Assembly: GCA_963823335.1 (NCBI GenBank)
Contig: CAWGLD010000006.1
Span: forward strand, 64,001 to 128,000
Reading direction: 5' to 3'
DNA length: 64,000 nt
DNA from: an uncultured delta proteobacterium
GTDB taxonomy: Bacteria; Desulfobacterota; Desulfobacteria; Desulfobacterales; B30-G6
Shown: positions 17,427 through 57,976 of the stretch, piece after piece
Layout: every line of letters begins with the position of its first letter
How positions within the stretch are numbered: the first letter of the stretch is position 1
Notes under the pieces: model-generated
What the model saw: the letters and a program-made list of their open reading frames with translations, nothing else
Databases searched by the model: none
Told to the model about the DNA's origin: nothing
Program-made: the position numbers and the translations under genes

Positions 17427-17441
17427 GAAAATTGATTGACC

Positions 17442-23159: not shown

Positions 23160-23175
23160 GACATTTTCTCCAGTC

Positions 23176-31801: not shown

Positions 31802-33106
31802 TCATTTGATCAAGCCCGGCAGAAACAGAACAAGTTTCGGGAATATCATGAGTATGAAGATACAGAGAAGATAGGCAGGCAGAAAATAGGTCACACCCTT
31901 GAATACATCTTCCAGGGGCACATCTTTTGCCATGCCGCCGACCACATAAGTGGTAGCCCCCACGGGAGGTGTGACAGCACCGAGCGTTGTCACCACGGTA
32001 ATGGTAACCCCGAACCAGATGGGGTCGTATCCAAGTTCCATGGCTACAGGAAAGAAAATAGGGATTGTGATCAAGAGCAGTGCCAGGGCATCCATCACCG
32101 CACCACCCACAATATATATGGCAAAGATAATTGCCATGATGGCCATGTCAGGAACCGGCAAGCCTACAACCCAGGAGGCGATGTCATAGGGTATCCGGGT
32201 TACCGCCAGAAATCGACCGAATATCATGGCACCGGCCACGATAACGATCACCATACAGGAGACCCGGATGGTATCGGTGATGGCCCTCAGAAAACCCTCC
32301 CAACTGAGTTTTTTCTGAATCACACTGAGCAGGACGGCGAAAAGAGACCCAACGGCACCGGCCTCGGTGGGTGTAAAAAAGCCGAAATAGAGACCCATCA
32401 TCACCAGCATGAACAGAATGGCCATTTCAAAGGCACCCGAGAGACCCTTTATCTTTTCGACAAAGGTGGTCCTGGGTCCCACCGGCCCCCAGTCCGGATG
32501 CATTGTGCAGACAACATAGACCGTCAGAATCAGCAAAACCGCCAGAACAACTCCGGCACCGATTCCGCCGTAAAACAGGCGGGCAATGGACTGTTCAGTG
32601 GAAAGCCCGATGACGATCAGCACTACGCTCGGCGGTATCACGACACCTAGTGTCGAGCCGCATGCTATCGCTCCTGTACTCAGACGTGAATCATAGCGGT
32701 ACTTTTTCATCTGGGGGAGCGCTACCGTGGTCATGGTGGCTGCAGTGGCTGCATTGGAACCGCAAATAGCTGAAAACGCCGAACAGGCCATGATGGTGGC
32801 CATGGCCACGCCGCCACGAATCTGGCCCACCCATTGATAGGCCGCTTTGTACAGTTTCTCGTTGACACCCGAATAAAATGCGATCTGCCCCATGAAAATA
32901 AACAAAGGGATGACGGTCAGGCCATATTTGGAAAAGGTCTCCCACAAAACGGAGCCCAGCATGTTCAATCCTGCCTTGAAAGAGATAAGATAGCAGAACC
33001 CGCAGAATCCCACGATGCCCATGGCGAAGCCCACAGGAGTACCGAGCAAGAAGAGCATCAACAAGAGGATGACGATGCCGAGGATACCAATAGCAGCTGG
33101 CGTCAC
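31802..33106 (-). CDS. dctM: TRAP transporter large permease
   Basis: IPLFIFMG, SAICGS, IPPS, FTPTEAG, TPPVG; GTG start overlaps the dctQ stop. Confidence 0.93.
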   Translation of the reverse strand: MTPAAIGILGIVILLLMLFLLGTPVGFAMGIVGFCGFCYLISFKAGLNMLGSVLWETFSKYGLTVIPLFIFMGQIAFYSGVNEKLYKAAYQWVGQIRGGVAMATIMACSAFSAICGSNAATAATMTTVALPQMKKYRYDSRLSTGAIACGSTLGVVIPPSVVLIVIGLSTEQSIARLFYGGIGAGVVLAVLLILTVYVVCTMHPDWGPVGPRTTFVEKIKGLSGAFEMAILFMLVMMGLYFGFFTPTEAGAVGSLFAVLLSVIQKKLSWEGFLRAITDTIRVSCMVIVIVAGAMIFGRFLAVTRIPYDIASWVVGLPVPDMAIMAIIFAIYIVGGAVMDALALLLITIPIFFPVAMELGYDPIWFGVTITVVTTLGAVTPPVGATTYVVGGMAKDVPLEDVFKGVTYFLPAYLLCIFILMIFPKLVLFLPGLIK

Positions 33107-33594
33107 GATTCTGCCTCCTTGGTGGAAATGAGCTGTTTTAAGAAATCCGTAAGAAGAATCAATGCGAGCACCCCACACCCAAGGGCGACCGCATACGTGA
33201 ATGGGTAGTAGATGATTCTGAGGGTTTCCGTGACTTCACCGGTACTTCTGAGGGTATTGGCTTTTAATGCCAGCTGCCAGCCGGCCAGGATAAAAAATAC
33301 GGAACACATAGCATTGTTGACTGCCGCAAGAACCCAACGGGTCTTGGGAGGAAAGACATTTACCAGTACATCCACGGCAATATGGCCTTTTTTGATCTGT
33401 GTGTAGGCCAAGGCAAAGGCTGTCAAAAGCGCTCCTGAAAATCCCATCAGTTCATATGTCCCGCTGATGGGCACCCAGAACATACGAAAAACAATATTGG
33501 CACATGTCAACAGAACCATGACAATCAGAACAAGGCCCGCCAGAAACGTCAGTATTTTGTTAAGGTACGCTGTAATCTTCGTTAAATAGTTCAT
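33103..33594 (-). CDS. dctQ: TRAP transporter small permease
   Basis: Four TM segments, GHIAVD. Confidence 0.92.
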   Translation of the reverse strand: MNYLTKITAYLNKILTFLAGLVLIVMVLLTCANIVFRMFWVPISGTYELMGFSGALLTAFALAYTQIKKGHIAVDVLVNVFPPKTRWVLAAVNNAMCSVFFILAGWQLALKANTLRSTGEVTETLRIIYYPFTYAVALGCGVLALILLTDFLKQLISTKEAES

Positions 33595-33603
33595 GATACA
33601 TCC

Positions 33604-33682
33604 GAAGCACGAAATTCGAAATACGAAACAATACTCAATGTTTGGATTTGTTTCGTATTTCGATATTCGAATTTAGAGTTTT
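33604..33682. repeat. Inverted heptamer array (CGAAATT/ATTTCG type)
   Basis: CACGAAATTCGAAATACGAAAC...GTTTCGTATTTCGATATTCGAATTT. Confidence 0.7.
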
Positions 33683-33698
33683 CTTTCGGCCGTACGTT

Positions 33699-34724
33699 TT
33701 ACTTTCCAGCGTGTTTTGCGGTGAGCGCTTTGATGTCGTTCACAATGGCTTCACCGGGATAGCCCTTTTCCGTAGCACTTTTGATCCAGTCTTCAGTCAT
33801 AAAGGTAAGTTTGGCATCCCATTTGGCTTTCTCTGCAGAAGACAGGCGGATGAATTCCACACCCTGTTCTTTTTGCGACCATGCATTGGCCTCTTTCACG
33901 TGATTGTCCATATACGTGCCCGTCCAAAGGGCCTGCTCCACACGCAGGTTTTCAATCACTGCCTTGACATCATCGGGCAATGCATTCCATTTTTCGATAT
34001 TCATGACCACCGCAAATGGATAGATGACCGTATCGGTTTGGGTAACATATTTACAAATTTCTGCAAATTTAAAATCTTTCATGACCTCCGTGGAGGTAAA
34101 GAGACCCTGAACAACACCCTTTTGCAGGGCTTCGGGTGTTTCAGACATGGGCATACCTACCTGGTTGGCACCCCAGGCTTTAAGGATCTGGGCCGCCCCA
34201 CCAGAGGCTCTTAAGTCCAGGCCTTTGATATCATCAAGGGTTCTTACCGGTACTTTGGACATGATATTGGCGGGTGCTGTGGTAAACATGGTCAGGACCC
34301 GGACCTTGGCAAAAGATGTGGGCAGGTATTTCTGATAGAGATCCCAGAGTACCAGACTACCGGTTTTAGCATCGGGCAATCCCAATGGAAGGCTGGTGGC
34401 GTTGGTGGTGATAAAACGGCCGGGCTGATAGGCCATGCAGAGGCAACCGATATCTGCCGTTCCGGCGATGACACCGTCCATCATGTCCATGGCACCCAGG
34501 AGGGTTCCACCCGGGTATGTGTTGATGGCGACTTTGTTGGCAGTTCTTTGCTCAACTTCCGTTTTCCAGCGTTCCATTTGAACACAGGGAAATGTCGGGG
34601 CCGGTGGAAAATTGGCATAGCTGAGTTTTATGGATCCGGCCAGCGTCATTGTCGGCGTCAAAAAGGTCGCGACAAGGGCAGCAGCAAAGAAAATGGTGCC
34701 TAAAAGAACAATATTTTTCCTCAT
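33699..34724 (-). CDS. dctP: TRAP transporter substrate-binding protein
   Basis: Signal peptide, YPGGTLL, LDLRASG, ALQKGVVQG. Confidence 0.93.
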   Translation of the reverse strand: MRKNIVLLGTIFFAAALVATFLTPTMTLAGSIKLSYANFPPAPTFPCVQMERWKTEVEQRTANKVAINTYPGGTLLGAMDMMDGVIAGTADIGCLCMAYQPGRFITTNATSLPLGLPDAKTGSLVLWDLYQKYLPTSFAKVRVLTMFTTAPANIMSKVPVRTLDDIKGLDLRASGGAAQILKAWGANQVGMPMSETPEALQKGVVQGLFTSTEVMKDFKFAEICKYVTQTDTVIYPFAVVMNIEKWNALPDDVKAVIENLRVEQALWTGTYMDNHVKEANAWSQKEQGVEFIRLSSAEKAKWDAKLTFMTEDWIKSATEKGYPGEAIVNDIKALTAKHAGK

Positions 34725-34762
34725 GATAGATCCTCCTTTTGAGATTAGAGATTTGTTCTAAA

Positions 34763-34908
34763 TAGAAGCCATCTCAAAAAAAGGGTTTTGGCTCAAGTTC
34801 AAGGCGGGCCCGAACTTCAACCCGCAGGCATACTCAAGTATTCCGAGGAGTTGAAGCAAGGGACCAACACAGAAATTGGGCTAAAAAACTTTTTTGAGAT
34901 AGCTTCTA
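34763..34908 (+). mobile_element. 146-bp MITE-like element, copy 3
   Basis: Same TIRs and interior as copy 1. Confidence 0.9.
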
Positions 34909-34930
34909 ATGTGTTATTTTAAGTTACCTC

Positions 34931-37255
34931 CTAGCACGGCTGTTCTTTTTCGGTCAGGGGGTCGATGCCGCAGGAGTCGATACCTTTTTTCTTTTTTATC
35001 TCAGCCAGCACTCTCTCAGGTGTTATGGGAAGATCCGTAATCCGCACACCGATGGCGTCATAGATGGCGTTGGCAATTGCCGGGGCGGTGGGCACACAAC
35101 CTGGTTCGCCGATTCCTTTGGCCCCATAAGGCCCGTCCGGGTCAATGGTTTCAATGACCACAGGTGTCAAGGGGAACGCATCCTTGGCGGTAAGTATTTT
35201 GTAATCGCGAAAATCAGGATTCATGTTACGTCCTTTTTCGAGTATCACCTGCTCGGTGAGGGCATAACCGACACCCATCATAACCCCCCCATGGACCTGG
35301 CCGTCCAAAAGCATGGGATTGATGGCCCGGCCAACATCATGGGCAGCAACATAATCGAGAATTTCAACTTTTCCGGTTTCTTCATCTACCTTCAACCGTA
35401 CGCCGTGGGTCCCGAAGGCATAGGTCATGGAAAGGTTTCCCCGAAAATCTCTACCCATGTTTTCATTTGCGGGATCATAAAAATAATCGGCCATCATCAT
35501 GGTACCGCCGTGGCTGAAATGAGCCTTTCGAAGCAGTTTGGCAATCGAGATGCTCTTTTCGGGATCGTCCTGGACAAACACATGCCGATTTTGAAGACGG
35601 AGTTTAGCTTGTGGTACACCCAGAGCCCCGGCACCCATTTCTAAAATACGGGTCCTGATTTTTTCTGCAGCTCCAAGTGCGGCATTTCCCGCCACAAAAG
35701 TCGTCCGGCTGGCGTGGGCACCTACATCCCAGGGACAAATGTCACTGTCGTGATGAATAACATGGATATCGTCAACCTCAAGACCCAGGTGTTCAGCTAC
35801 TATTTGGGCCAGCACCGTATCGGCACCCTGCCCCATGTCCGAGGCGCCTGTAAAAACATCGGCTTTCCCGAAGTCATCCAGCTTGATAATTGCACCGCAG
35901 CCATCGGATTTATATATTCGGGCGCCACCCCCGACATGAATTAAAGAAGCGATCCCTATACCTTCTCCTGCAGCTCTGGGTTTATCAAGGTGCAATGCCT
36001 TTTCAACCGCGTCAATACATTCCGGTAAACCGCAGGTGGTAATTTTAAACCCCTGGGGCGTTTCGTCTCCGGGCTGATTGGCGTTGATCCGTCGGATTTC
36101 CAGGCGATCGATACCAGCGGTTTCGGCCAATATATCCATGGCGCTTTCGATGGCAAATGTAGCCTGGGGATTGCCATAACCCCGCATGGCCTGGGAATAG
36201 GTATTGTTCGTGTAAACACATTTGGCCTCGTAACGAACATTGGGCACTCGGTAAAGAGATGTGATCGGCATCATCATCACCGATGGCGTGGTAACACCCC
36301 AGGAGGTATAAGCGCCATTATCCAGCACCATATTTATATCCCGGAACAGCAGACGACCCTGGGCGTCGCAACCCATGGCTATGTCGATGATGGTTGGCTG
36401 CCGGGTGGATGTGGCCTTAAACTCCTCATCCCGGTCAAACAAGATTTTCACCGGTCGGCGGGCCCGCCAGGCCAGCAAAATAGCCACATGTTCATAAGCA
36501 TAAGTGTCAAGTTTGCTGCCAAAGCCTCCCCCGATAACAGGCTTGATGACCCGTACGCGTTTATCAGAGATTCCCAACGCCTTGAGAGTCTCTTGAAAAT
36601 CCTTTTGCGCAAGGGATGGAATCTGGGTGTTGGTATGGATGGTTAGGTTGTTGTTATTGTCAAAGTCAGCGATGGCACCGCTGGTTCCAAGACAGCAGTG
36701 GGTGACCCATGTGGTTGTGAAGCGCTTTTCAACCACATGGGCAGCCTCTTTGCGAGCACTATTTACATCACCGTAGTGCAGCTTCCATGGCATTTTCAGA
36801 ATGTTCGTTTTATGGTTTTCGTGCACCAGTGGTGCGTCGGGTTGCATGGCCGTTATGGGATCGAAAACAGATGGCAGGGCCTGATACGTCACCTCGATTA
36901 AATCGATGGCCTGCTTGGCAATTTCCGGATCCGTTGCTGCCACGGCAGCTACTTCATCCCGGTAGGATCTCACCTTGCCGGCTTTCAAAGGAGGATTGTC
37001 TTTATAGACACCCATGCGGATATTGGGAATATCTTTCCCGGTGAGTACAACCCGAACACCACTGAGTTTCTCTGCTTCGGATGTATCAATGTTGACGATT
37101 CTGGCGTGCGGGTATTTGCTGTATAATAGTTTACCATAAAGCATGCCGGGTAGTTTGACATCCTGAATGTACTGAGCACGTCCCGTGGCCTTGTCAACGG
37201 CATCCAGTTTGGGCACCCGTTTGCCAACCGTTGAAAATTCCTGTTTTGTTTCCAT
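34931..37255 (-). CDS. Xanthine-dehydrogenase-family molybdopterin subunit
   Basis: IGGGFGSK, AMRGYGNPQ, DMGQG, ASRTT, GAKGIGEP. Confidence 0.93.
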   Translation of the reverse strand: METKQEFSTVGKRVPKLDAVDKATGRAQYIQDVKLPGMLYGKLLYSKYPHARIVNIDTSEAEKLSGVRVVLTGKDIPNIRMGVYKDNPPLKAGKVRSYRDEVAAVAATDPEIAKQAIDLIEVTYQALPSVFDPITAMQPDAPLVHENHKTNILKMPWKLHYGDVNSARKEAAHVVEKRFTTTWVTHCCLGTSGAIADFDNNNNLTIHTNTQIPSLAQKDFQETLKALGISDKRVRVIKPVIGGGFGSKLDTYAYEHVAILLAWRARRPVKILFDRDEEFKATSTRQPTIIDIAMGCDAQGRLLFRDINMVLDNGAYTSWGVTTPSVMMMPITSLYRVPNVRYEAKCVYTNNTYSQAMRGYGNPQATFAIESAMDILAETAGIDRLEIRRINANQPGDETPQGFKITTCGLPECIDAVEKALHLDKPRAAGEGIGIASLIHVGGGARIYKSDGCGAIIKLDDFGKADVFTGASDMGQGADTVLAQIVAEHLGLEVDDIHVIHHDSDICPWDVGAHASRTTFVAGNAALGAAEKIRTRILEMGAGALGVPQAKLRLQNRHVFVQDDPEKSISIAKLLRKAHFSHGGTMMMADYFYDPANENMGRDFRGNLSMTYAFGTHGVRLKVDEETGKVEILDYVAAHDVGRAINPMLLDGQVHGGVMMGVGYALTEQVILEKGRNMNPDFRDYKILTAKDAFPLTPVVIETIDPDGPYGAKGIGEPGCVPTAPAIANAIYDAIGVRITDLPITPERVLAEIKKKKGIDSCGIDPLTEKEQPC

Positions 37256-37330
37256 TCCTTATCCGTTCCTTTGGTTGTATATCAAGAAAGGTTGCATTTT
37301 TATCTCATCTGGAAGCACATCAAAATCAGG

Positions 37331-37837
37331 TCAAGTTTGGTTCTTCCAGGCTACGACTTTCACATCCTGTGACCCTTTATCTACAGCGGCCTGGATGGAT
37401 TCGAATATCTGGGTATAGCCGGTACAACGACAAAGATTACCGGCCAGAGCGTGTTTGATGTCGCCCAGCGCGGGAGTCGGGTTTTCATCCAGAAGAGCCT
37501 TAGACGACATGATCATGCCCGGCGTACAAAACCCGCATTGAATACCGCCGTGTTCCACAAATGCACGCTGCAGCGTGTGCAGAGTGCCGTCTGCGCCCGA
37601 CAGTCCTTCAATGGTCGTCAAGACCCGGTCATTGACTTCTGCCGCCAAATACAGGCAGCTGTTGACAGCCTGGCCGTCGATAATGACGGTACAGGCACCG
37701 CATTCGCCACTGCCGCAGCCCTCTTTGGTTCCGGTGAGTCCCATTACCTCTCTAAGCAGATAAAGCAAGGTCCAATGATCCTCTATCTCCATCTGGATAT
37801 CATTACCGTTTAGATTGAACTGTATCTTTGTGGACAT
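37331..37837 (-). CDS. Xanthine-dehydrogenase-family 2x[2Fe-2S] subunit
   Basis: GCGSGECGACTV, QCGFCTPG, GNLCRCTGY; GGAGG RBS before ATG 37837. Confidence 0.94.
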   Translation of the reverse strand: MSTKIQFNLNGNDIQMEIEDHWTLLYLLREVMGLTGTKEGCGSGECGACTVIIDGQAVNSCLYLAAEVNDRVLTTIEGLSGADGTLHTLQRAFVEHGGIQCGFCTPGMIMSSKALLDENPTPALGDIKHALAGNLCRCTGYTQIFESIQAAVDKGSQDVKVVAWKNQT

Positions 37838-37897
37838 GTACAAACCTCCAAGGAATTTGAAGTATGTCGCAGCAGGCAAAGAGGAATGCGCTGGCTG

Positions 37898-38779
37898 CTA
37901 ATATTTTTCTTCGATTCGCCTTAGGCACAGCATACCCATTCTTCGAACAAACACAGACACCATTTCACGGCGGTACCAGGCTTGTCCACGGGTGCTGTCT
38001 CGTACCCTGGATTCTTCGGCTGCGATTTTTCCAGCTTCAGTCAGAATATTTTCATTTAGCGCCTTGCCCATGAGAAATCGCTCGGCGCTGAGGGTTCGCA
38101 GCGGAGTGGGTGCGGCTACCCCTAGACAGATTCGGGCTTTTCGACAAGTAGCTGTATCCTGATCCAAGGTCAAGACAATACCCACACCGATAAGGGGTAG
38201 TTCCATTGCAGCCCGCCGGCCGAGTTTTTGATAAGCGCCGCCGGTATGAGGGGGCTGGGGTGGAATGACAATTTCAGTCAGGATCTCACCTGATTCCATT
38301 ACGGTTTGCCCCGGCCCCTCAAAAAAGTGAATCAGATCCACAGTTCTTTCACCGTTTGGGCCATATATTTTAGCCACCCCGTCGAGAGCGATCAAAGGAA
38401 TGGCACCGTCTGCCGACGGTACGGCGTTGACGAGGTTGCCGCCGATAGTGGCCACATTTCGAATCTGCGTAGATCCTATGTGCTGCACAGCATCGTGGAT
38501 GATGGGATATTGATTTCGGATGAGAACGGAGTTTTCCAGGGTTCGGTGAGTTGCCAAGGCACCGATAATCAGTTCATGAGTGTCCGGATTGATCTGCACC
38601 CGTTCCAGACCCGAAAGATGTTTTAAAGAGATGAGATAATCAGGGGCGATCTTTCCTTGTTTCGCCTTGACGATTACATCGGTTCCTCCGGCCACGTACA
38701 TAACGCGATCACCATGGGACTCAAACAAGGACACCGCTTCATCGAGTGTTTGGGGCACAAGGTAAGTAAATGTTTTCAT
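37898..38779 (-). CDS. Xanthine-dehydrogenase-family FAD subunit (no HcrB-type 4Fe-4S insert)
   Basis: AGGTD, QIRNVATIGGNLVNAVPSAD with no Cys-rich insertion. Confidence 0.92.
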   Translation of the reverse strand: MKTFTYLVPQTLDEAVSLFESHGDRVMYVAGGTDVIVKAKQGKIAPDYLISLKHLSGLERVQINPDTHELIIGALATHRTLENSVLIRNQYPIIHDAVQHIGSTQIRNVATIGGNLVNAVPSADGAIPLIALDGVAKIYGPNGERTVDLIHFFEGPGQTVMESGEILTEIVIPPQPPHTGGAYQKLGRRAAMELPLIGVGIVLTLDQDTATCRKARICLGVAAPTPLRTLSAERFLMGKALNENILTEAGKIAAEESRVRDSTRGQAWYRREMVSVFVRRMGMLCLRRIEEKY

Positions 38780-38839
38780 ACGTTCCTCTATACATCACGT
38801 TGGGATAGATTGATATCAGTTAATCCGCAAACTATCATT

Positions 38840-40132
38840 TTATACAGGTCTGTTGTCAAATACACGTTTAGATTTTCGCTCCGACCTCGGCAAGGAGCAG
38901 GTATCGAGCAACTCTACTTCGCAGCTTACCATGATACTGTTTTTAATTTTACGACAAATGGAAGCCTCGAGTTCCCTGGCCTGTTCGGCGTCGGTATCTG
39001 ATCCACATTCCACACGAAGCGTCATGGTATCTTTACCGTTTGATTCCCGTTCAAGTATCACCTGGTACTCACAGGATATTTCAGGTATGGAGGAAAGAAC
39101 TTCATCAATCTGGCCCGGATAAATGTTAACGGCCCGGAAAATAATCATATCGTCCGAACGCCCCAAAATGCTGTCATGCATGGGAAGCAGGTTGCCGCAA
39201 GAACAGGGTGACGGTATCATGCGGGTCAGATCTCGTGTACGATACCGTATCAAGGGTGATGCCTCCTTGCACAGGGTCGTAACCACCATTTCACCGACCT
39301 CACCCTCGGGTACCGGTTCCAGGGTTTCCGGATCGAGAATTTCAAGGAGGTAATAATCGGCCCAGTAGTGAATACCTTCATGCCGGGAACATTCAAGACC
39401 GGTGCCTGGTCCATAGAGCTCGGTCATGCCCGGGATATCAAACATGTCTTCCAGGCCAAGCAAGGTCTTGATACGCTGACGCATGGCATGACTACTTCTT
39501 TCAGACCCGAAAATCATTTTCTTTAAGACTATTTTATCTTTCAGATGCCGTCTTTCGATCTCTTCCGCCATGAGAAGAGCCATGCTTGCGGTGCAACACA
39601 TAACCGTTGTTTGCAGATCCACCAGAAACTGACACTGCATATCGATATTTCCAGGCCCGATGGGCAGCGCCATGGCACCGAAACGTTCACAGCCAAGTTG
39701 AAAGCCGACTCCCGCTGTCCAGACACCATAACCAACGGCGATCTGAACACGATCCTCCTGGGATAGTTCAGCCATTTCGTAGCAACGCGCAAAAAAATGG
39801 CCCCAGTCATCGACATCTTTGCGGGTGTATGCCAGAATTTTTCGTTTTCCGGTGGTACCCGACGATGCATGAATCCGAACCACTTCGGATTCTGGGACAG
39901 ACAAGAGGGGCAACGGGTACCCGTTTCGTAAATCCTCTGCGTTTGTAAAGGGCAGTTTTCGGATATCGTCCAGTGTGTGGATATCTTGCGGAGTTACCCC
40001 TGAGAGATCCATCATCTTTTTGTAAAATGCGGAACCCTCATACACATGGGATGCTGTCCATTGCAGGCCCTTCAACTGGTGTGCTTTCAACTCGTCTCGT
40101 GATTGAAAAGCCGGCATAAATGTTCTACTCAT
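38840..40132 (-). CDS. Arylacetate-CoA ligase (PaaK-like)
   Basis: HASSGTTGK, GMTELYGPG, RYRTRD, GRSDDM. Confidence 0.9.
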   Translation of the reverse strand: MSRTFMPAFQSRDELKAHQLKGLQWTASHVYEGSAFYKKMMDLSGVTPQDIHTLDDIRKLPFTNAEDLRNGYPLPLLSVPESEVVRIHASSGTTGKRKILAYTRKDVDDWGHFFARCYEMAELSQEDRVQIAVGYGVWTAGVGFQLGCERFGAMALPIGPGNIDMQCQFLVDLQTTVMCCTASMALLMAEEIERRHLKDKIVLKKMIFGSERSSHAMRQRIKTLLGLEDMFDIPGMTELYGPGTGLECSRHEGIHYWADYYLLEILDPETLEPVPEGEVGEMVVTTLCKEASPLIRYRTRDLTRMIPSPCSCGNLLPMHDSILGRSDDMIIFRAVNIYPGQIDEVLSSIPEISCEYQVILERESNGKDTMTLRVECGSDTDAEQARELEASICRKIKNSIMVSCEVELLDTCSLPRSERKSKRVFDNRPV

Positions 40133-40187
40133 TTCACACCTCCTTCATCAAGATCTCGGCACATCTCTTCGGGAGAAATCGCGCAGT

Positions 40188-41954: not shown

Positions 41955-41997
41955 AAATCAGTTTTATCCTATATGTAACAATGGATGATAAAAATAG

Positions 41998-42074
41998 TTT
42001 TAAGTGTTAGGTTTTAAGTTTTAAGTTCCGCTAATGGCTGTTAGCTAACCTAACACCTAAAACTTAAAACCTAA
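41998..42074. repeat. Inverted heptamer array (TTTTAAG/CTTAAAA type); related array at ~46019-46098
   Basis: TTTTAAGTGTTAGGTTTTAAGTTTTAAG...CCTAACACCTAAAACTTAAAACCTAA. Confidence 0.7.
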
Positions 42075-42079
42075 ATCCG

Positions 42080-44176: not shown

Positions 44177-44236
44177 TTATTTTTTGCACCAAACGATTAG
44201 GACATAATTCATGAAACACGCATGTGACGCAATAAC

Positions 44237-44336
44237 GCTGGGATGCCTGGAGGCCTGGAGGCTGGGAAGCTGCTAACAGGCGATAACTCTCAGCCCCCTC
44301 CAACCCTTGTATCACCCTCGGACCCTTGTACCCTCT
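44237..44336 (-). repeat. Composite octamer-array element, copy C
   Basis: Reverse-strand core GGCTGAGAGTTATCGCCTGTTAGCAGC flanked by octamer runs. Confidence 0.65.
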
Positions 44337-45971
44337 CTAGAAGATGCCCGGCTCTTGCCACTCCCCAAAAATATCACGAAGAACGGCAGTCATCTCCCCG
44401 ACAGTGGCATATTCACGGCAGCAGTCCACCAGCAAGGGCATGACATTGTCCCCCTTTCTGGTTCCCTTGTCGAGTTCTTTTAAGGTGCGGTTCACTGCCT
44501 GGTTGTTACGAGAGCCCTTTAAATCCTGTAGACTTTTGATCTGTTTTTCAACCCAGGCTTCGTTATGCTCGTGAAGTTCCACATCAGGGCCGGTTTCGTC
44601 AACGTCGGTGTATTTATTTAAACCGATCTTGATATATTCCCCACTTTGCAGTCCTTTTTCATATTCATAAGCCTGCTGGGCCACTTTTCTCTGTATATAA
44701 CCGGATGAAACTGCAGCAATCATACCACCGACGTGCTGGATAGCTGTCCTTTCCTCCTGAACTTTGTCTTCCATCTGCTTGGTGAGCGTTTCGATAAAAT
44801 AGGATCCCGCCAAGGGGTCCACAGTGTCCCTCAGACCGACTTCATCCATGATGATTTCAAGCGTTCTGAGAGAAAGCAGAGCTGCACGAGGTGTGGGGAT
44901 GGTGTATGCTTCATCAAAGGAGCACAGCGCGGTTGTCTGGGCGCCACTGAGTGCGGCACCGAGAGCATAGAAGGCACTTCTCATGATGTTGTTTTCCGGT
45001 TGCTCTTTTGTCAGACCGCTGCCACCGCCACCAAAAAGGCCCCGTAAAAAGAGTTTCTTTTTATCCTGAATACCGTATTCATCCCTCAACATCCGGGCCC
45101 AAAGCTTTCTGGCTGACCTGAATTTGGCTATTTGCTCCCACAGGTTTCCAAAGACATTCAGGTTGAAGGAAAAACGCCCCACAAAATCTCCTACATCTAT
45201 ACCTCGCGCCGCTACATTGTCTATGTAGGATTTTGCAATTTCAAAAGCACAGGCGATTTCCTGTGAGGGTGTCGCACCTGATTCCCGGATGTGATAGCCG
45301 CAGACACTCACCGGATTGCACCTGGGCAGCGCTTTCATGCTGTATTCAATACTGTCGCCAACCAGCCTAACGGCATGTTCAACAGGAAATATCCAGGCCC
45401 CGCGACCAATCATCTCCTTCAGGATATCGTTCTGGGGGGTGGCGCTGATACGGTCTATGGCATAACCGGTTTTTTCTGCAAGAGCCTGATACATGGCCAG
45501 CGTGATACATGCAATGGCGTTGATGGTGAGCCCAGTACCAATCCGATCGAGGGGGATACCGTCAAAGGCGATTTCAAAATCCCGCAGAGAATCGACAGCC
45601 ATACCAACGCGACCGACCTCTCCGGCAGCAAGTGGACTGTCGGAGTCCAATCCCATCTGTGTCGGAAGATCAAAGGCGACATTCAGCCCGGTCTGGCCGT
45701 GTGAAATCATATATTTAAATCGTTTGTTGGTCTCTTCCGGTGTTCCAAAACCGGTATACTGGCGTGTCGTCCAGGCCCGACTGCGATAACCCTGGGGGTG
45801 CAGACTCCGGGTGAACGGGTATTCCCCGGGATCACCCAGGTCCTTTTGATAATCGAAACCTACCGCCGTAAGATCATCCGGTGTGTACACAGGTTTGACT
45901 TTGATACCCGATTGATATTCAACCTCTGTGATGGCCCCTTTTTCATCTTTGATATATTTGGCAACACCCAT
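44337..45971 (-). CDS. Acyl-CoA mutase large subunit (methylmalonyl-CoA mutase family)
   Basis: PGEYPFTR, RQYTGFG, AFDLPT, QNDILKE, GYHIRESG, DPLAGSY. Confidence 0.92.
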   Translation of the reverse strand: MGVAKYIKDEKGAITEVEYQSGIKVKPVYTPDDLTAVGFDYQKDLGDPGEYPFTRSLHPQGYRSRAWTTRQYTGFGTPEETNKRFKYMISHGQTGLNVAFDLPTQMGLDSDSPLAAGEVGRVGMAVDSLRDFEIAFDGIPLDRIGTGLTINAIACITLAMYQALAEKTGYAIDRISATPQNDILKEMIGRGAWIFPVEHAVRLVGDSIEYSMKALPRCNPVSVCGYHIRESGATPSQEIACAFEIAKSYIDNVAARGIDVGDFVGRFSFNLNVFGNLWEQIAKFRSARKLWARMLRDEYGIQDKKKLFLRGLFGGGGSGLTKEQPENNIMRSAFYALGAALSGAQTTALCSFDEAYTIPTPRAALLSLRTLEIIMDEVGLRDTVDPLAGSYFIETLTKQMEDKVQEERTAIQHVGGMIAAVSSGYIQRKVAQQAYEYEKGLQSGEYIKIGLNKYTDVDETGPDVELHEHNEAWVEKQIKSLQDLKGSRNNQAVNRTLKELDKGTRKGDNVMPLLVDCCREYATVGEMTAVLRDIFGEWQEPGIF

Positions 45972-46104
45972 CTGTTCACCTTTTTTTTGAGCGGTAAGAC
46001 GTAAGCACGAACGTTATTGTTTTAAGTTTTAGGTTTTAAGTTTTAGGAAGACCCAAGCGAGACGATCGTATTTTTCAATGTCAAAACGTAACACCTAAGT
46101 ACCA

Positions 46105-46503
46105 TCATTTATTGCTGATTTCTTTTATTCCTTCAATCATAACGTCAAAAAGGGTTCCACCTGGATAGACGCCTTTGATGCCCATTTGCTCAAGTTTCAC
46201 GATGTCGCGTGCAGGTATGACACCGCCTACCACAACCCCGGTGGACTCAATGCCTTCCTGTGTCATCATCGCGAGAAGCTTTTCACAGATGCTAAGGTGA
46301 GCACCAGACATGATACTGAGCCCAATGATGTCAACGGCTTCCTGAACAGCTGTTCTTACAATCTGCTCAACCGGTTGATGAAGCCCGGTGTATACCACCT
46401 CCATGCCCGCGTCCCGAAGTGCCAGTGCAACAATCTTTGCGCCTCTGTCATGACCATCCAATCCAGGTTTTGCAATGAGTATTTTTATTTTTTTATCGCG
46501 CAT
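46105..46503 (-). CDS. Cobalamin-binding small subunit of the mutase
   Basis: KPGLDGHDRGAK (DxHxxG), SIMSGAH, GGVIP. Confidence 0.95.
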   Translation of the reverse strand: MRDKKIKILIAKPGLDGHDRGAKIVALALRDAGMEVVYTGLHQPVEQIVRTAVQEAVDIIGLSIMSGAHLSICEKLLAMMTQEGIESTGVVVGGVIPARDIVKLEQMGIKGVYPGGTLFDVMIEGIKEISNK

Positions 46504-46556
46504 AAGAAAATCCTTTTATAATTCAGGTTAATCAGACTGTATAGCCTGTCAGTCTA

Positions 46557-46702
46557 TAGAAGCCATCTCAAAAAAAGGGTTTTGGCTCAAGTTCAAGGCG
46601 GGCCCGAACTTCAACCCGCAGGCATACTGAAGTATTCCGAGGAGTTGAAGCAAGGGACCAACACAGAAATTGGATCAAAAAACTTTTTTGAGATAGCTTA
46701 TA
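46557..46702 (+). mobile_element. 146-bp MITE-like element, copy 4 (slightly diverged)
   Basis: Same element; right TIR ends GATAGCTTATA. Confidence 0.88.
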
Positions 46703-46722
46703 GTCTATCCACCTGAGGGGTC

Positions 46723-47421
46723 CTAGCTCAACTCGTCATACGATTCCATTACCGCTTTCTTCCCACGGGCCAAATGCTCCCGGACAAGATTTTCAACACC
46801 GTCCGCATCTCGCTGTCTGATGCGGTCGAGCATATCTTTATGATCCTCATTGCTCATTTTCGCCAGTTTCTCATTTCTCAGTATCAGCTGTCGAAATCGA
46901 TAGATCTGATCGCGCAGATTATTGATCATATGGATCAGCTTCGGGCTTCTGCTCAAGGCATACAATAGATCGTGAAAATCTGTGTTGATGTCGGGAAGCG
47001 CGTCGAGATCTTTATTATCCAAATGTTTCTGATATATCTTGATCTTTTTCTCAAGAGGTTTAAGGTCTGTCGGACGATGCTTTTCGGCAGCTAATCGTGC
47101 TGCATAGCTTTCCAGAACGCTTCGAATACCGAATGTTTCTTCTACGTCCTCCCGGCTGAGCCCCAGCACATTGAAGCCACCCCGGGGAAGTTTTCGTAAA
47201 TAGCCTTCTCTTTCCAGTTTGTGGATAGCTTCTCTGACCGGTGTCCGGCTGATGCCGAGCGTTTCTGCCAAACGACTTTCGATGAGCCTTCCGCCCGGTG
47301 GCACATCACCTTTGATGATCGCGTTTTTCAGATTCTCGAACACATGCTGTCCGAGTGATTTTCGTTGACCGATTTTATCGAGTTCTTCCAATCCTGTGCC
47401 GCTGTCTTTTTGGGAACCCAT
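46723..47421 (-). CDS. GntR-family regulator with FCD domain
   Basis: GISRTPVREAI HTH; N-x-x-FH...EH...H FCD motif. Confidence 0.93.
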   Translation of the reverse strand: MGSQKDSGTGLEELDKIGQRKSLGQHVFENLKNAIIKGDVPPGGRLIESRLAETLGISRTPVREAIHKLEREGYLRKLPRGGFNVLGLSREDVEETFGIRSVLESYAARLAAEKHRPTDLKPLEKKIKIYQKHLDNKDLDALPDINTDFHDLLYALSRSPKLIHMINNLRDQIYRFRQLILRNEKLAKMSNEDHKDMLDRIRQRDADGVENLVREHLARGKKAVMESYDELS

Positions 47422-47470
47422 GGTCTATCCCTGCTGTTTTCAATTGCCCCAACATCTGTTATAACAAGCG

Positions 47471-48661
47471 CTATATGACGCCTCTGCTTTTCAGAGCTTC
47501 GAGAGTTGCTGGATCATACCCCAGTTTCTGACCATAAATTTCATTGTTATGCTCACCAAAGCGGGGTGGAAACGTAAGCTGGCCCCCGCTGTTTTTTATA
47601 AATGAAGTCATGATGGGTGGTGGTGACAACGTAATTTGTTGGGAAGTGATGGGATCTTTGGCGAAGAGCAATTGTTTCTTGACCAATGGGTCTTGAATGA
47701 CATCCGTGATGGACTTGATCTTGCTGACAGGGACCGTTATGGACTGTAAGAGTTCGATAAGATCCTCGGAGGTCATTTCTTGGGTGATGGCATTCATGGC
47801 CTTATTCAAATTTGTAACATCCTGTATTCTACCGGAATTTTTCTCGTATTCTGGTTTGTCAAGGGATTTGAACATTGATTGCTTCACCAGCGTCTTCCAC
47901 TGTCGATCATTTCCGACCGCCATATAAATAAAGCCGTTTTGGGTTTTATAAACCGAAACAGGACAAAAAAATTCATGGGTGTTGCCTCTACGGGTAATTT
48001 TTTTTCCAAAACTGGACGTCAGGGTAATGGGAACCGTTAACCATGAAACAGAAGATTCGAACATGGACAAATCAATACGGCTCCCCTCTCCTGTGAATTG
48101 CTTTTTTAAAAGTGCTTTCATGAGGAGTCCGTAAGCATGTTCGCTGGTTCCCATGTCCGGCAGAGGTATGCCAAGCACCTGCGGATCACCATCCGCTGTC
48201 CCTGTGAGGTCCATCAGTCCTGATCTTGCCTGTAAAATCGGATCATAGGCACCCTCGTTGCTGTCCGGTCCGAATCCGGTGACACCCAGCCAGATGATGT
48301 CTTCCTTGACACTTTTGAGCCGATCGAAATCGATACCCAGTTTCTGATAGTTTTTTGGCAATTGATTGGTGATAAAGATATCGACGTTCAACGCATGAAT
48401 CAACCGATCAAAAATATCCCGTCCATCAGGATCGGCAAGATTCAGAGTTAAAGCCTTCTTTCCGGCATTGATACAAAGGTAATAGGCATTCATACGGTTC
48501 TCACTTAACACATTATCCCCGATCATCCTGTTAGGGTCTCCATAAACAGGGTGCTCCAGACGGATAATATTCATGCCGTCCTGGGCGAGTCGATAGGTAA
48601 GATACGGAACTACCGTGGCCTGTTCCAAGGATAACACCGTTATGGTTTTTAAAAAATCCAT
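47471..48661 (-). CDS. Class III (CaiB/BaiF) CoA transferase
   Basis: GDPNR, NAGKK, GFGPD, YDPILQARSG, GEHN. Confidence 0.92.
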   Translation of the reverse strand: MDFLKTITVLSLEQATVVPYLTYRLAQDGMNIIRLEHPVYGDPNRMIGDNVLSENRMNAYYLCINAGKKALTLNLADPDGRDIFDRLIHALNVDIFITNQLPKNYQKLGIDFDRLKSVKEDIIWLGVTGFGPDSNEGAYDPILQARSGLMDLTGTADGDPQVLGIPLPDMGTSEHAYGLLMKALLKKQFTGEGSRIDLSMFESSVSWLTVPITLTSSFGKKITRRGNTHEFFCPVSVYKTQNGFIYMAVGNDRQWKTLVKQSMFKSLDKPEYEKNSGRIQDVTNLNKAMNAITQEMTSEDLIELLQSITVPVSKIKSITDVIQDPLVKKQLLFAKDPITSQQITLSPPPIMTSFIKNSGGQLTFPPRFGEHNNEIYGQKLGYDPATLEALKSRGVI

Positions 48662-48744
48662 ATGTCTCTCCTTGATATGAAAATAGAATGTAGTGTAATT
48701 AGAGATTGCCTGTCAGTGGTGGGGCTTTCGCTGCTCAGTATAAT

Positions 48745-48761
48745 TTGTATACTGTATACAA
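48745..48761. promoter_or_regulatory. GntR-type operator palindrome in a divergent promoter
   Basis: TTGTATAC-T-GTATACAA next to a reverse-strand TTGACA; same motif at 57897. Confidence 0.75.
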
Positions 48762-48943
48762 GAAACTATTGTCAAGAATTGTTTGTGATGATATGAATGC
48801 TTTCTTGTATTGACTTTAAATTTAAGTGTACAGTAGGTGAGATTGAAGATTCCTTACAGCAAGCCACGGGGAATGCGCTCGCTGTTTCGGTTCACTGTTC
48901 GGTTCAGTAAATTTATCATCTCAAACGCAAGGAGGTTCATGTA

Positions 48944-49156
48944 ATGGCTGATGTTAATGCTCCCATGCCCGGAAAAATCTGCGAAGTAAAAGTCAGTCCT
49001 GGGGATACCGTTATAGAAGATCAGGAAGTTTTGGTTCTCGAAGCAATGAAAATGGAAATGCCGATTGTCGCAACGGCCGCCGGCACGGTTAAATCCGTCA
49101 ACTGTAGTGAAGGGGATGCGGTACAGGGTGGCGATGTCCTTATGGTCATTGATTGA
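48944..49156 (+). CDS. Stand-alone biotin carboxyl carrier protein (70 aa)
   Basis: APMPG, LEAMKME biotinylation motif. Confidence 0.94.
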   Translation: MADVNAPMPGKICEVKVSPGDTVIEDQEVLVLEAMKMEMPIVATAAGTVKSVNCSEGDAVQGGDVLMVID

Positions 49157-49218
49157 TTTCGTGACAGGCATTTTTTTCCGGTTATACGAGTTGGGGTTTA
49201 TAGCGAAAGGGGGCCGGC

Positions 49219-50781
49219 ATGTCCGACCAGACCACACATAAAAGTGAGCTGAAACGCCTAGCGGCTCTCACGGAAAGGGCTGAACTGGGGGGCGGTGTTA
49301 AAACTATCGATAAACGTCATGCCCAGGGAAAGCTTACTGCCAGAGAACGCCTGACTCTTTTATTCGACCCTCATTCATTCGTGGAAATGAATCAACTTGC
49401 CGAGAGCCAGGCCGTTGATTTCGGCATGCAGGAAAAAAAGGTTCCCGGCGACGGTGTCGTCATCGGCTATGGTAACATTGATGAGCGGCTCGTTTTTGCC
49501 TATGCCCAGGATGCCACGGTGCTGGGAGGATCGGTTGGAACCGTTCACGGCCAGAAAATATGCCGTATCATGGATGAAGCTTTGAAGGTCAAGGCACCCA
49601 TCGTGGGGCTTTTCGATTCCGGAGGCGGCAGAATCCATGAGGGCTTTTTCGCATCCAAGGGTGTGGCCGGTATGTTTTACCGCAATACAGCGGCATCAGG
49701 TGTCATCCCCCAGATCTCTGCCATGATGGGACCCTGTGCCGGCGTATCGGTCTACTCCCCTGCCCTGACAGACTTCATTATCATGGTGGAGGGTACCAGC
49801 CAGATGGCCATTACCGGTCCGGGAGTGATAAAATCCGTTACCGGTGAGGATGTGACCCTGGAAGAGCTGGGTGGCGCAAAGGTGCACAGCGAAATAACCG
49901 GCCAGGCTCATCTTGTTGTCAATACCGACCAAGACTGCATTCAGTCAATTCGCAATCTCCTGGCCTATCTCCCCTCAAACAATGAAGCATCTCCACCCCT
50001 TGTAGAATCGAATGAAGACCCCTTTCGCTCGGATCCATCTTTGGAAGATATTGTTCCTGCAGATTTCAGAAAGGCATACGATATGCGAAAGGTCATTACA
50101 CGCGTGGTGGACCAGGAGACCTTCCACGAACTGCTTCCCAGATATGCAAAAAGCATCATCATCGGATTTGCGCGAATGGATGGGCAGACCATCGGCATTG
50201 TCGCTAACCAGCCTATTTATCTTGCAGGATGTCTGGATGTCAACAGCTCGGACAAGGCCGCCAGATTCATTCGATTCTGTGATGCCTTCAATATCCCCTT
50301 GATCAACCTTGTGGATGTGCCCGGATATTTTCCAGGTGTCAAACAGGAGTACGCCGGTATCATCCGGCATGGCGCCAAAATGCTGTATGCCTATGCCGAG
50401 GCAACCGTTCCCAAAATCACCCTGGCCTTGAGAAAGGAATACGGAGGCGCCGTCATGGCCATGTGCTGCGTAGGAATGGGTGTGGACCAGATGCTGGCCT
50501 GGCCGATTGCCAAACTGGTTGTCCTGGACACCACTACGGCCGTGAACCTGATCTTTCGAAAAGAAATCCAATCTGCCGAGGATCCTGACGAATTCAGACA
50601 GCGCATGATCAAGGCCTATGACCAGAAGTATTCAAATCCTTTTCATGCGGCTTCCAACATGCTCGTGGATGCGATCATCGAACCAAGCCAGACACGACCT
50701 GAGCTAATCAAAGCCCTGCGAATGCTTAAAACAAAAAAACGTCCCGGACCTTTCAGACGACATGGGAATATACCACTATGA
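49219..50781 (+). CDS. Acyl-CoA carboxyltransferase/decarboxylase (PccB/MmdA family)
   Basis: GKLTARER, DSGGGRI, YSPALTDF, DVPGYFPG. Confidence 0.92.
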   Translation: MSDQTTHKSELKRLAALTERAELGGGVKTIDKRHAQGKLTARERLTLLFDPHSFVEMNQLAESQAVDFGMQEKKVPGDGVVIGYGNIDERLVFAYAQDATVLGGSVGTVHGQKICRIMDEALKVKAPIVGLFDSGGGRIHEGFFASKGVAGMFYRNTAASGVIPQISAMMGPCAGVSVYSPALTDFIIMVEGTSQMAITGPGVIKSVTGEDVTLEELGGAKVHSEITGQAHLVVNTDQDCIQSIRNLLAYLPSNNEASPPLVESNEDPFRSDPSLEDIVPADFRKAYDMRKVITRVVDQETFHELLPRYAKSIIIGFARMDGQTIGIVANQPIYLAGCLDVNSSDKAARFIRFCDAFNIPLINLVDVPGYFPGVKQEYAGIIRHGAKMLYAYAEATVPKITLALRKEYGGAVMAMCCVGMGVDQMLAWPIAKLVVLDTTTAVNLIFRKEIQSAEDPDEFRQRMIKAYDQKYSNPFHAASNMLVDAIIEPSQTRPELIKALRMLKTKKRPGPFRRHGNIPL

Positions 50782-50815
50782 TATTGATCGGCTCCTTTGG
50801 GGCAAATCAATATTA

Positions 50816-50897
50816 AAGGTTCAAGGGGCCAAGGATTCGAGGGTTCGAGGGTGGCTGAGGGCGATCAGCTGACAGCAGCATCCTCGCCTCCCAGCAT
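50816..50897 (+). repeat. Composite octamer-array element, copy D
   Basis: Core GGCTGAGGGCGATCAGCTGACAGCAGC flanked by octamer runs. Confidence 0.7.
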
Positions 50898-50967
50898 ACA
50901 AGGGATCAAGATACTGATTTTACTCGTATGTCTATGAAAAAAAACCAATCGAAACAGGGAGAATATC

Positions 50968-52116
50968 ATGGACTTTACCCTCTCCAAGGAACATAAGGAT
51001 ATCCAGAAAGCAGCCAGAGAATTTGCCGTGGGTGAATTTACCCATGTGGCACGTGAATTCGATTTGAATGAAACCTTTCCGCAAAAGATCCTGGACAAAG
51101 CCCGTAAGCTGGATCTTATCGGTCTGTTCATCCCGGAGGCATACGGCGGACCGGGTCTGGGTTTCCTGGAGCATGCATTGGTGCTGGAAGAATTCTGGAA
51201 AATTGATCCTGGTATCGGTCAGCAGCTCTGTTCAGTTTCGTTTGGTGCCGAAGAGCTGCTCCTGTTTGGTACAGAAGAACAGAAAAAAACATTTCTCAAT
51301 CCGATTTTCAGCGGCAAGGCCATTATGGGATTTGCCATTACCGAACCGGATGCCGGGAGCGACACGGCCGCTGTTGCAACAACCGCTGTAAGAGACGGTG
51401 ACGACTATATTATCAACGGCAGCAAGATCATGATCGGTAATGGCACGGTGGGAACATTTATGCTGGTATTTTGTCTGACCAATCCGGATGAGAAATCAAA
51501 GACAGCCCGGCACAGCGTTATCATTGTCGAAACCGATCGACAGGGGTATAAAGCCGATAAAATGGACGGCAAGATGGGACTCAGATGTTCTGACACAGCC
51601 GCTGTCTACTTCAACAATGTGCGGGTACCCAAAGAAAATCTGCTGGGTAGGGAAGGCCATGGCTTTATCCAACTGATGCATTTCTTCGATCGCTCCAGAG
51701 CCTACGTGGCCGCCCACGGCCTTGGCTTGGCACAGGGCGCCTTGGATCAGGCCGTCAAACACGTCAGAGGCAGAAAACAGTTCGGGCGCCCTTTGGGTGC
51801 TTTCCAGGCGACCCAGTTCAAGATTGCCGAAATGGCAACCAAGATCGAAGCCGCCAGGAACATGGTCTACAAATCCGCCTGGCTTCTGGACAACGGCATG
51901 GCTGATACCAAACTCACCGCCATGGCCAAACTGTATGCCTGTCATGTGGCTGTGACGGTTGTTGACGAAGCTCTTCAATTGCACGGCGGATACGGGTATT
52001 TCAACGATTATGACATCGAACGATTCTACCGGGCCGCCAAGGTACTCGAAATATATGAAGGCACCAAAGAGGTTGAAAAGATAATTATTTCTCGGGAAAT
52101 TTTGGGGAAATTATAG
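50968..52116 (+). CDS. Acyl-CoA dehydrogenase
   Basis: FAITEPDAGSD, RKQFG, QLHGGYG, IYEGT. Confidence 0.95.
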   Translation: MDFTLSKEHKDIQKAAREFAVGEFTHVAREFDLNETFPQKILDKARKLDLIGLFIPEAYGGPGLGFLEHALVLEEFWKIDPGIGQQLCSVSFGAEELLLFGTEEQKKTFLNPIFSGKAIMGFAITEPDAGSDTAAVATTAVRDGDDYIINGSKIMIGNGTVGTFMLVFCLTNPDEKSKTARHSVIIVETDRQGYKADKMDGKMGLRCSDTAAVYFNNVRVPKENLLGREGHGFIQLMHFFDRSRAYVAAHGLGLAQGALDQAVKHVRGRKQFGRPLGAFQATQFKIAEMATKIEAARNMVYKSAWLLDNGMADTKLTAMAKLYACHVAVTVVDEALQLHGGYGYFNDYDIERFYRAAKVLEIYEGTKEVEKIIISREILGKL

Positions 52117-57787: not shown

Positions 57788-57896
57788 TGTCTCCTCCTTC
57801 CTGATAGGTATTTAAATGGTTTGATGGATTGCGCTACAGGGTAAGATTTGGTGTAACACGCTGAAAAAGATTCATTTTTTAACTTGACTTCAAACA

Positions 57897-57911
57897 TGTA
57901 TACAGTATACA
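57897..57911. promoter_or_regulatory. GntR-type operator palindrome, second copy
   Basis: TGTATAC-A-GTATACA flanked by inverted CTTGACT/AGTCAAG (divergent -35-like hexamers). Confidence 0.75.
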
Positions 57912-57976
57912 GATTTTAGTCAAGAGAATAATGATACGTATCCAATTTTTTAACATAAATAAAGAAGGAAATCTCC

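Follow-up and report, generated by a model that had tools for sequence, protein, structure and literature searches.

In the literature covered, the biochemistry of indole-ring catabolism by the iaa route has been studied only in denitrifiers, while predicted iaa operons that include iaaF and electron transfer flavoprotein (ETF) genes are reported for Desulfatiglans anilini, NaphS2, Desulfocarbo indianensis, and Ferroglobus placidus (PMC8360864). According to that paper, IaaF is defined by a GGG motif and its physiological electron acceptor is an open problem. Here we describe a 64,000-nt stretch of contig CAWGLD010000006.1 (positions 64,001–128,000; hereafter the window) from a genome (G000) that is 93.9% complete and 4.37 Mb in size. 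The window carries a variant of the known iaa pathway with a PccB/MmdA-family carboxyltransferase (CT); iaa operons in sulfate reducers had already been predicted (PMC8360864). From homology we consider it likely that the locus is a sulfate-reducer iaa regulon that would degrade indole-3-acetate (IAA) and tryptophan anaerobically to 2-aminobenzoyl-CoA, with the IaaF step split between a biotin-dependent CT and an acyl-CoA dehydrogenase bearing a YEG motif.

The original prediction had proposed a strict-anaerobe version of the Aromatoleum IAA pathway in a probable sulfate reducer. The host assignment agrees with a dsrA gene above its model cut-off, and a strict-anaerobe iaa pathway does seem likely, although the predicted operons in D. 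anilini, other sulfate reducers, and F. placidus (PMC8360864) mean that it is not new. All genes that had been listed are intact and in place; overlooked within the same interval were the biotin carrier (48944–49156) and the CT (49219–50781). Thirteen minus-strand genes, spaced by −76 to 219 bp, run from the CoA transferase (47471–48661) as far as dctM (31802), and divergent from them on the plus strand stand the biotin carrier, CT, and acyl-CoA dehydrogenase, in that order. The features are as follows.

31802–34724, minus: TRAP transporter dctM/dctQ/dctP (Pfam DctM/DctQ/DctP), likely for IAA uptake
34931–37255, minus: large subunit of the molybdenum (Mo) hydroxylase, IaaK-like
37331–37879, minus: 2×[2Fe-2S] subunit, IaaJ-like, 49% identical to its Aromatoleum counterpart
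37898–38779, minus: FAD subunit, IaaI-like, 293 aa, without a 4Fe-4S insert
38840–40132, minus: PaaK-type aryl-acetate CoA ligase, a likely indoleacetate-CoA ligase
40188–41954, minus: hydantoinase B (lactamase beta subunit), in a clade probably apart from IaaE
42080–44176, minus: hydantoinase A (ATP-binding alpha subunit), 35% identical to IaaC
44337–45971, minus: B12 mutase large subunit, IaaH-like, 54% identical to IaaH
46105–46503, minus: B12-binding small subunit, IaaG-like, 46–49%
46723–47421, minus: GntR/FCD regulator, 32% identical to the GntR at the head of the A. buckelii iaa operon
47471–48661, minus: class III CoA transferase, IaaL-like, 37%
48745–48761: predicted operator, perfect palindrome TTGTATAC-N-GTATACAA, between the divergent units, 28.5 bits
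48944–49156, plus: biotin carboxyl carrier protein, 70 aa, EAMKM motif
49219–50781, plus: PccB/MmdA-family CT with remodelled pocket, predicted (2-aminobenzyl)malonyl-CoA decarboxylase/transcarboxylase
50968–52116, plus: YEG-type acyl-CoA dehydrogenase, not IaaF, predicted 3-(2-aminophenyl)propionyl-CoA dehydrogenase
54599–56179, minus: serA (3-phosphoglycerate dehydrogenase), second copy; the other, at C7:304977, is 65% identical
56414–57787, minus: trpB2, NF009057 and TIGR01415 above cut-off
57896–57912: second predicted operator, between trpB2 and HADH/ECH, 26.8 bits
57977–59998, plus: 3-hydroxyacyl-CoA dehydrogenase/enoyl-CoA hydratase (HADH/ECH) fusion, orthologue of the fusion adjoining the Aromatoleum iaa cluster
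60032–62786, plus: indolepyruvate:ferredoxin oxidoreductase iorAB, TIGR03336 above cut-off
62966–64000, minus: IaaB-like CoA ligase, running past the window end (full gene C6:126966–128648), 36% identical to IaaB
C6:128614–129036, just past the window: methylmalonyl-CoA-epimerase-like gene, TIGR03081 match below cut-off

The iaa-like core and the predicted route

Window proteins were compared with three reference iaa loci, in which gene order was taken to give the letters A, C, E, I, J, K, and P, and protein family, after the Fig. 1 legend of PMC8360864, the letters B, F, G, H, L, and M. The references are loci matching part of the iaaF primer printed there, namely those of A. buckelii U120, A. 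anaerobium LuFRes1, and a Rhodocyclales metagenome-assembled genome; the primer-matched gene carries the GGG motif, and A. aromaticum EbN1 was not among the matches, so that all comparisons rest on these three primer-anchored loci. Identity to the references is 46–47% for the Mo subunit, 49% for the FeS subunit, 30–35% for the FAD subunit, 54–55% and 46–49% for the large and small mutase subunits, 37% for the CoA transferase, 35% and 31–32% for hydantoinases A and B, 34% for the acyl-CoA dehydrogenase, and 57% for HADH/ECH (54% against A. buckelii). Within the genome, the corresponding iaa proteins find their best matches in the window's Mo subunit, mutase, CoA transferase, hydantoinases, and HADH/ECH; the small FeS and FAD subunits are not separable from genome paralogues by identity to the references. 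The reciprocal comparison that had been suggested as a check came out for the Mo subunit, mutase, CoA transferase, and HADH/ECH and failed for the dehydrogenase. None of the NCBIfam models that came up in scans bears the name of an Iaa protein.

On a quick tree of 31 sequences, HcrA not among them, the Mo subunit and IaaK fall together (SH-aLRT 99), and the two share the motifs HCC[LM]GT, GGGFGSKLD, GAYTSWG, and HASRTTF, which are absent from HcrA. The FAD subunit has three scattered Cys and scores 118 bits against an HcrB cut-off of 405, and therefore lacks the 4Fe-4S insert, as had been claimed for it. A different reading would make the molybdoenzyme a relative of 4-hydroxybenzoyl-CoA reductase (Hcr) and the hydantoinases parts of an acetophenone-carboxylase-like (Apc) carboxylase. 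The Mo subunit does match HcrA best in both PDB and NCBIfam, but the scores lie far under cut-off (635 vs. 995 bits for HcrA, 142–301 vs. 1250–1500 for the Apc subunits), the Mo-subunit motifs are those of IaaK, and the locus has only a single hydantoinase A and a single hydantoinase B. We consider this reading highly improbable and rejected both of its parts, Hcr on sub-cut-off scores for HcrA and HcrB and on the missing HcrA motifs and 4Fe-4S insert, and acetophenone carboxylase on sub-cut-off scores for ApcA, ApcC, and ApcD and on the missing multi-subunit set; the proteins fit neither of these clades, which had been named as the alternatives to Iaa.

Two further observations concern molybdoenzymes in related loci. 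In the closest relatives (G296, G104, and G244; loci L007, L039, and L020) the same slot holds another Mo-subunit subtype, 52–55% identical to that of the window, and the subunits of distant relatives are 70–77% identical to the window subunit, a sequence pattern that suggests module exchange. A second enzyme of the xanthine dehydrogenase family (L014:8330–10663 and orthologues) adjoins the cluster in 17/86 related loci and was not found in G000 (best match 38%); in its large subunit Met replaces the Glu of the AKGIGEP motif (nine copies aligned).

The mutase retains the methylmalonyl-CoA mutase (MCM) motifs RQY, QND..R, and GYH and has the IaaH Gly run in place of MCM HxQTSG and ALCS in place of HTNS (20/20 relatives aligned). 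Since the genome has its own housekeeping MCM and MmdA, the window mutase and CT are extra copies. The CoA transferase is the only close IaaL homologue in the genome (37%). A MeaB-type GTPase gene, seen in 39 related loci (e.g., L027:17748–18716), often separates gntR from the gene for the mutase small subunit; the window has none, and the closest copy in the genome is at C5:231362 (45%). Judged by homology, the hydroxylase, mutase, CoA transferase, HADH/ECH, and regulator are of iaa type, as the original prediction had it; the assignment does not extend to the acyl-CoA dehydrogenase with its YEG motif or to the PaaK-type ligase, and it is doubtful for the hydantoinase (31–35%).

As had been noted, no thiolase was found in the window (none among 50 open reading frames scanned with Pfam). 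The best genome match to the Aromatoleum iaa thiolase (C6:161722–162912, 45–48%) lies ~34 kb past the window end and adjoins oah, had, dch, and Bcr-like genes. The surrounding benzoyl-CoA pathway island (C6:141395–162912, 13–35 kb past the window) comprises oah, had, dch-like genes, a second iorAB, PaaK, one activator, one BcrB/HadB-like subunit, and this IaaA-like thiolase.

We assign every substrate and reaction of the following route by homology. IAA would enter by the TRAP transporter and be activated by the PaaK-type ligase; alternatively, tryptophan would pass through indolepyruvate to indoleacetyl-CoA by way of IorAB. The original prediction had drawn the route from free IAA; in the Fig. 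1 legend of PMC8360864 it begins at indoleacetyl-CoA. The Mo hydroxylase would then form 2-oxo-indoleacetyl-CoA, hydantoinase A/B would open the lactam at the expense of ATP, the CoA transferase would shift CoA, and the B12 mutase would yield (2-aminobenzyl)malonyl-CoA. This intermediate would have to lose CO2 and be oxidized; IaaF does both without a catalytic Glu, and a PccB-type CT with its carrier followed by a Glu-containing dehydrogenase would reach the same product in two steps. After a likely epimerization, the CT would shift the carboxyl group to the biotin carrier, leaving 3-(2-aminophenyl)propionyl-CoA, which the YEG dehydrogenase would convert to 2-aminocinnamoyl-CoA. HADH/ECH and the thiolase at C6:161722 would release acetyl-CoA and 2-aminobenzoyl-CoA, and the latter could be taken up by the BamB-type reductase of the genome (an orthologue scoring 1244 bits against 4Z3W).

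Predicted replacement of IaaF by a carboxyltransferase

The window acyl-CoA dehydrogenase was rejected as IaaF: it has YEG instead of GGG, and the A. buckelii gene that it matches best (38%) is not iaaF. No IaaF orthologue was found elsewhere in the 93.9%-complete genome, where the best candidates are ≤39% identical to either IaaF type and none matches at E ≤ 1e-90; four other GGG-motif dehydrogenases in the genome fall under the same ≤39%. The neighbouring CT belongs to the PccB fold family (591 bits against 1VRG) and is 52% identical to the housekeeping MmdA/PccB. In 24/24 of its orthologues four residues differ from the housekeeping copy (Tyr157Val, Leu154Ser, Gly184Val, and Tyr422Val), and the CT has Met at position 423 (numbering of MccB, PMC5187497, mapped by motif spacing). 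The genome also encodes a Na+-pump decarboxylase beta subunit and a 5S/pyruvate-carboxylase-B protein, neither linked to the locus; either could, on homology, be the carboxyl acceptor.

CT and IaaF are mutually exclusive among related genomes. A mutase search of 401 genomes of the class gave 101 matches at E ≤ 1e-120, of which 73 were kept (73–100% identity, five partial genes) and 28 dropped (40–46%). Among the 73 mutase-positive genomes, 44 have the CT, 26 have IaaF, three have neither, and none has both. Over all 401 genomes the CT clade occurs in 48 and an IaaF-type gene in 26; all of these counts come from incomplete assemblies of non-independent kin with only 3–4 candidates scored per genome. 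The mutase is present in 44/48 CT-positive genomes, and the other four are fragmented assemblies. IaaF-type genes carry GGG in 8/8 aligned. On a FastTree phylogeny of 88 mutases (60 labelled) the CT/IaaF label changes six times; starred branches force at least three of these changes, and a single genus (g33) contains both forms. Synteny, proposed earlier as a check, bears the assignment out: the 26 class-mates with the iaaF form otherwise have the genes and order of the window, and 8/20 class-mate loci show the same operon with a GGG-motif IaaF and ETF. Beyond the class, a phylum sample gave a mutase match at E ≤ 1e-165 in 85/381 genomes. With the mutase clade in 73/401 class and 85/381 phylum genomes, indole-ring catabolism by the iaa route may be a common trait of sulfate reducers.

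A shared operator ties the CT to the iaa core. For it, we built a weight matrix on 45 sites that precede the CoA transferase gene in 35 relatives, leaving G000 out. Over the 4.37-Mb genome it gives two outstanding matches, at 48745 (28.5 bits) and 57896 (26.8 bits), both in the window, with the next at 16.5 bits; across 87 loci it finds 99 sites, including those used to build it, vs. 0 in one shuffle. The operator lies 54–612 bp upstream of the CT in 24/24 loci, often separate from the CoA transferase's own site, and in family f7 the CT and dehydrogenase often head the same gene run as the iaa core. It also occurs once in each of the three Rhodocyclales iaa loci, before GntR.

Substrate, side steps, and a possible indole link

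Several observations weigh against IAA as substrate and a CT-split IaaF step. At the CT, Phe161 is retained, and Phe at this MccB position has been linked to acyl chains no longer than four carbons (PMC5187497); a biotin carrier was found in only 5/24 CT loci; and seven of 21 loci from other classes, none of which shows a CT, have neither CT nor IaaF in the fetched stretch, to which that search was confined. In a rival reading, the left operon would be iaa and the CT, biotin carrier, and acyl-CoA dehydrogenase would form a neighbouring propionyl/methylmalonyl-CoA module, with another enzyme serving the IaaF step. The CT's 52% identity to the housekeeping MmdA/PccB, its Phe161, and the four GGG-motif dehydrogenases elsewhere in the genome speak for it. 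However, those GGG enzymes are ≤39% identical to either IaaF type, CT and IaaF exclude each other in 70 genomes, nearly all CT-positive genomes carry the mutase, and the operator precedes the CT throughout, with the CT heading the CoA-transferase operon in several loci. We regard the separate module as improbable and retain the split IaaF step as the likely arrangement. The seven other-class loci with the iaa core and neither gene in the stretch (G483, G578, G516, G488, G610, G452, and G703; within L064–L088) may hold a third solution for the decarboxylation.

At the lactamase, which sets ring specificity, the window subunits are only 31–35% identical to IaaC and IaaE. Among the 150 best hydantoinase B representatives of a 50%-identity library, none is >34% identical to IaaE, and all 150 score above IaaE's class of match. 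The best tree (21 sequences) sets hydantoinase B apart from IaaE, although an AU test does not reject the two as a single clade (p-AU 0.065). The best NCBIfam match of hydantoinase A is a caprolactamase alpha model, below cut-off. IaaE-like hydantoinase copies coexist with the window type in 5/401 class genomes, all mutase-positive, and the coexistence of the two suggests possibly different substrates. Finally, GTATAC-core palindromes may be common to FCD regulators, which would weaken the operator match to Aromatoleum.

These data bear on a reading with the same chemistry and another main substrate, in which the divergent lactamase and PaaK-type ligase would serve some other heteroaryl-acetate (e.g., a ring-substituted indoleacetate) and the IaaCE-type copies IAA. 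It would account for the separate hydantoinase clade, for the IaaE-like copies, which often have their own PaaK-like ligase, and for the second Mo-subunit subtype in G296, G104, and G244. Yet either lactamase type is found in the one slot, accompanied by mutases and ligases of the same clades, and the linkage of IorAB and TrpB2 and an operator common to the Aromatoleum loci also speak against it; we therefore think another main substrate unlikely and prefer IAA. Loci of other classes illustrate the shared slot: 6/21 have an IaaE/IaaC-like hydantoinase (69–72%/55–60%) in the window position, adjoining the same PaaK-type ligase, and 11/21 carry the window type. At the level of sequence, those six loci bridge the window operon to iaa. 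The operon ligase, whose orthologues (≥55%) occur in 63/86 related loci, is of PaaK type and has no real similarity to IaaB, whereas the ligase at the window edge is IaaB-like. In G045, G313, G184, and G421 (L043, L083, L081, and L052) an extra IaaE-like hydantoinase B (accompanied by its A subunit wherever one was seen) and a second PaaK-like ligase either extend the cluster or lie apart from it, possibly for a second indole substrate.

The second window operator stands beside genes for two indole-ring enzymes, IorAB and TrpB2; its distance is 81 bp to HADH/ECH-iorAB and 109 bp to trpB2-serA. In 86 related loci we found iorA orthologues in 27, TrpB2 in nine, and SerA in six. The operator precedes trpB2 in 8/10 loci, with at least four different arrangements (three shared with a divergent gene, one unshared, and four at 2.4–6.5 kb by way of same-strand genes), and in G079 the unshared site is 216 bp upstream of trpB2. 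TrpB2 enzymes are described as binding indole tightly and using O-phosphoserine (PMC11917138 and PMC2700814). The genome further carries a complete trp operon, which includes trpAB1, and a serA apart from that of the window; neither a tryptophan aminotransferase nor serC was located in it, and a class III aminotransferase near trpB2 in four relatives has only a 30% match in G000. A tentative, rather doubtful extension would make the regulon an indole trap joined to an auxin pathway: TrpB2 and the spare SerA would condense free indole with phosphoserine to tryptophan, IorAB would lead on to indoleacetyl-CoA, the iaa enzymes would open the ring, and the biotin-dependent decarboxylation would conserve, by way of the Na+-pump beta subunit or a transcarboxylase, energy that is lost with IaaF. 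Against the trap, TrpB2 is present in 5/5 mutase-negative genomes, the window operator near trpB2 is shared with HADH/ECH, and Desulfobacterium indolicum, the one described indole-degrading sulfate reducer, reportedly uses oxindole and isatin (PMC6221969). Given TrpB2 in mutase-negative genomes and the oxindole and isatin use of D. indolicum, indole capture is only a lead and not a result; if true, it would be a genetically defined indole degradation in sulfate reducers that bypasses free oxindole and isatin.

Flanking genes and comparison with known systems

Outside the cluster, the window (11510–21674, plus) has a run encoding alanine dehydrogenase, two aminotransferases, alanine racemase, a CapA-like protein, Asp/Glu racemase, an ATP-grasp ligase, and etfBA, which by its gene families looks like a D-amino-acid or peptide catabolic unit. 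A trimethylamine methyltransferase gene (MttB, 28838–30355, minus) appears as two open reading frames that form one frame with a single in-frame TAG; pylB is above cut-off in the genome (C1:1461420), which makes pyrrolysine read-through likely. The interval 21879–25599 holds another MttB-family gene along with a sarcosine/dimethylglycine-dehydrogenase-like gene. A 147-bp intergenic repeat occurs twice within the operon (34762–34908 and 46556–46702; 97% identical), and short inverted repeats flank iorB (62024–62163 and 62947–63007); given extra contig cover, both are probably dispersed repeats. Part of the stretch is contained in 17 estuary RNA runs; the four examined yielded contigs of relatives 98–99% identical, with cover flat across the cluster, flanks, and divergent intergenic regions and no sign of transcription or induction. 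Scans for sigma-70 promoters and for terminators gave chance-level counts (22 vs. 18.0 and 14 vs. 15.5).

Anaerobic alkane degradation, with its mutase and carboxyltransferase, resembles the predicted route in its B12 rearrangement, subsequent non-oxidative decarboxylation, and ordinary acyl-CoA dehydrogenase. Its intermediates run from (methylalkyl)succinyl-CoA through alkylmalonyl-CoA to acyl-CoA (PMC8360864), and it differs in that alkanes enter by fumarate addition, whereas the window pathway would take an aryl substrate with entry by hydroxylation and lactam hydrolysis. The PccB/MmdA/12S carboxyltransferases and MccB share the fold family of the window CT, which differs by its four changed pocket residues and, from MccB, by Phe instead of Gly at position 161. 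Carboxyltransferases of the MccB type, which act on long-chain acyl-CoA, are marked by Gly161 and by a residue other than Asp at 423, the position of Met in the window CT.

The Aromatoleum iaa loci share with the window an IaaIJK-like hydroxylase, an IaaGH-like mutase, an IaaL-like CoA transferase, the HADH/ECH fusion, and a GntR regulator with a similar operator, and in the window genome the thiolase likewise lies elsewhere on the contig. Unlike them, the window lacks IaaF and has the biotin carrier, CT, and YEG dehydrogenase instead; its hydantoinase is probably of another clade, a PaaK-type ligase stands inside the operon, iorAB, trpB2, and serA flank a second operator, and a TRAP transporter, whose proteins have no similarity to the ABC binding protein IaaM, takes the place of IaaM.

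The nearest likeness is to the predicted strict-anaerobe iaa operons, whose named strains we set beside the window by their description in PMC8360864. The parts of that paper covered do not mention the CT form, nor did literature on iaa in sulfate reducers or with TrpB2, covered as listings and the starts of abstracts with most subscription journals outside the search. The 26 class-mates with the iaaF form have otherwise the genes and order of the window, with ETF adjoining iaaF wherever the contig extended far enough. The window differs in having the CT form, which is the commoner (44/73), so that the form most frequent in the class has no IaaF and predicts an aryl-malonyl-CoA decarboxylase/transcarboxylase acting with an ordinary dehydrogenase.

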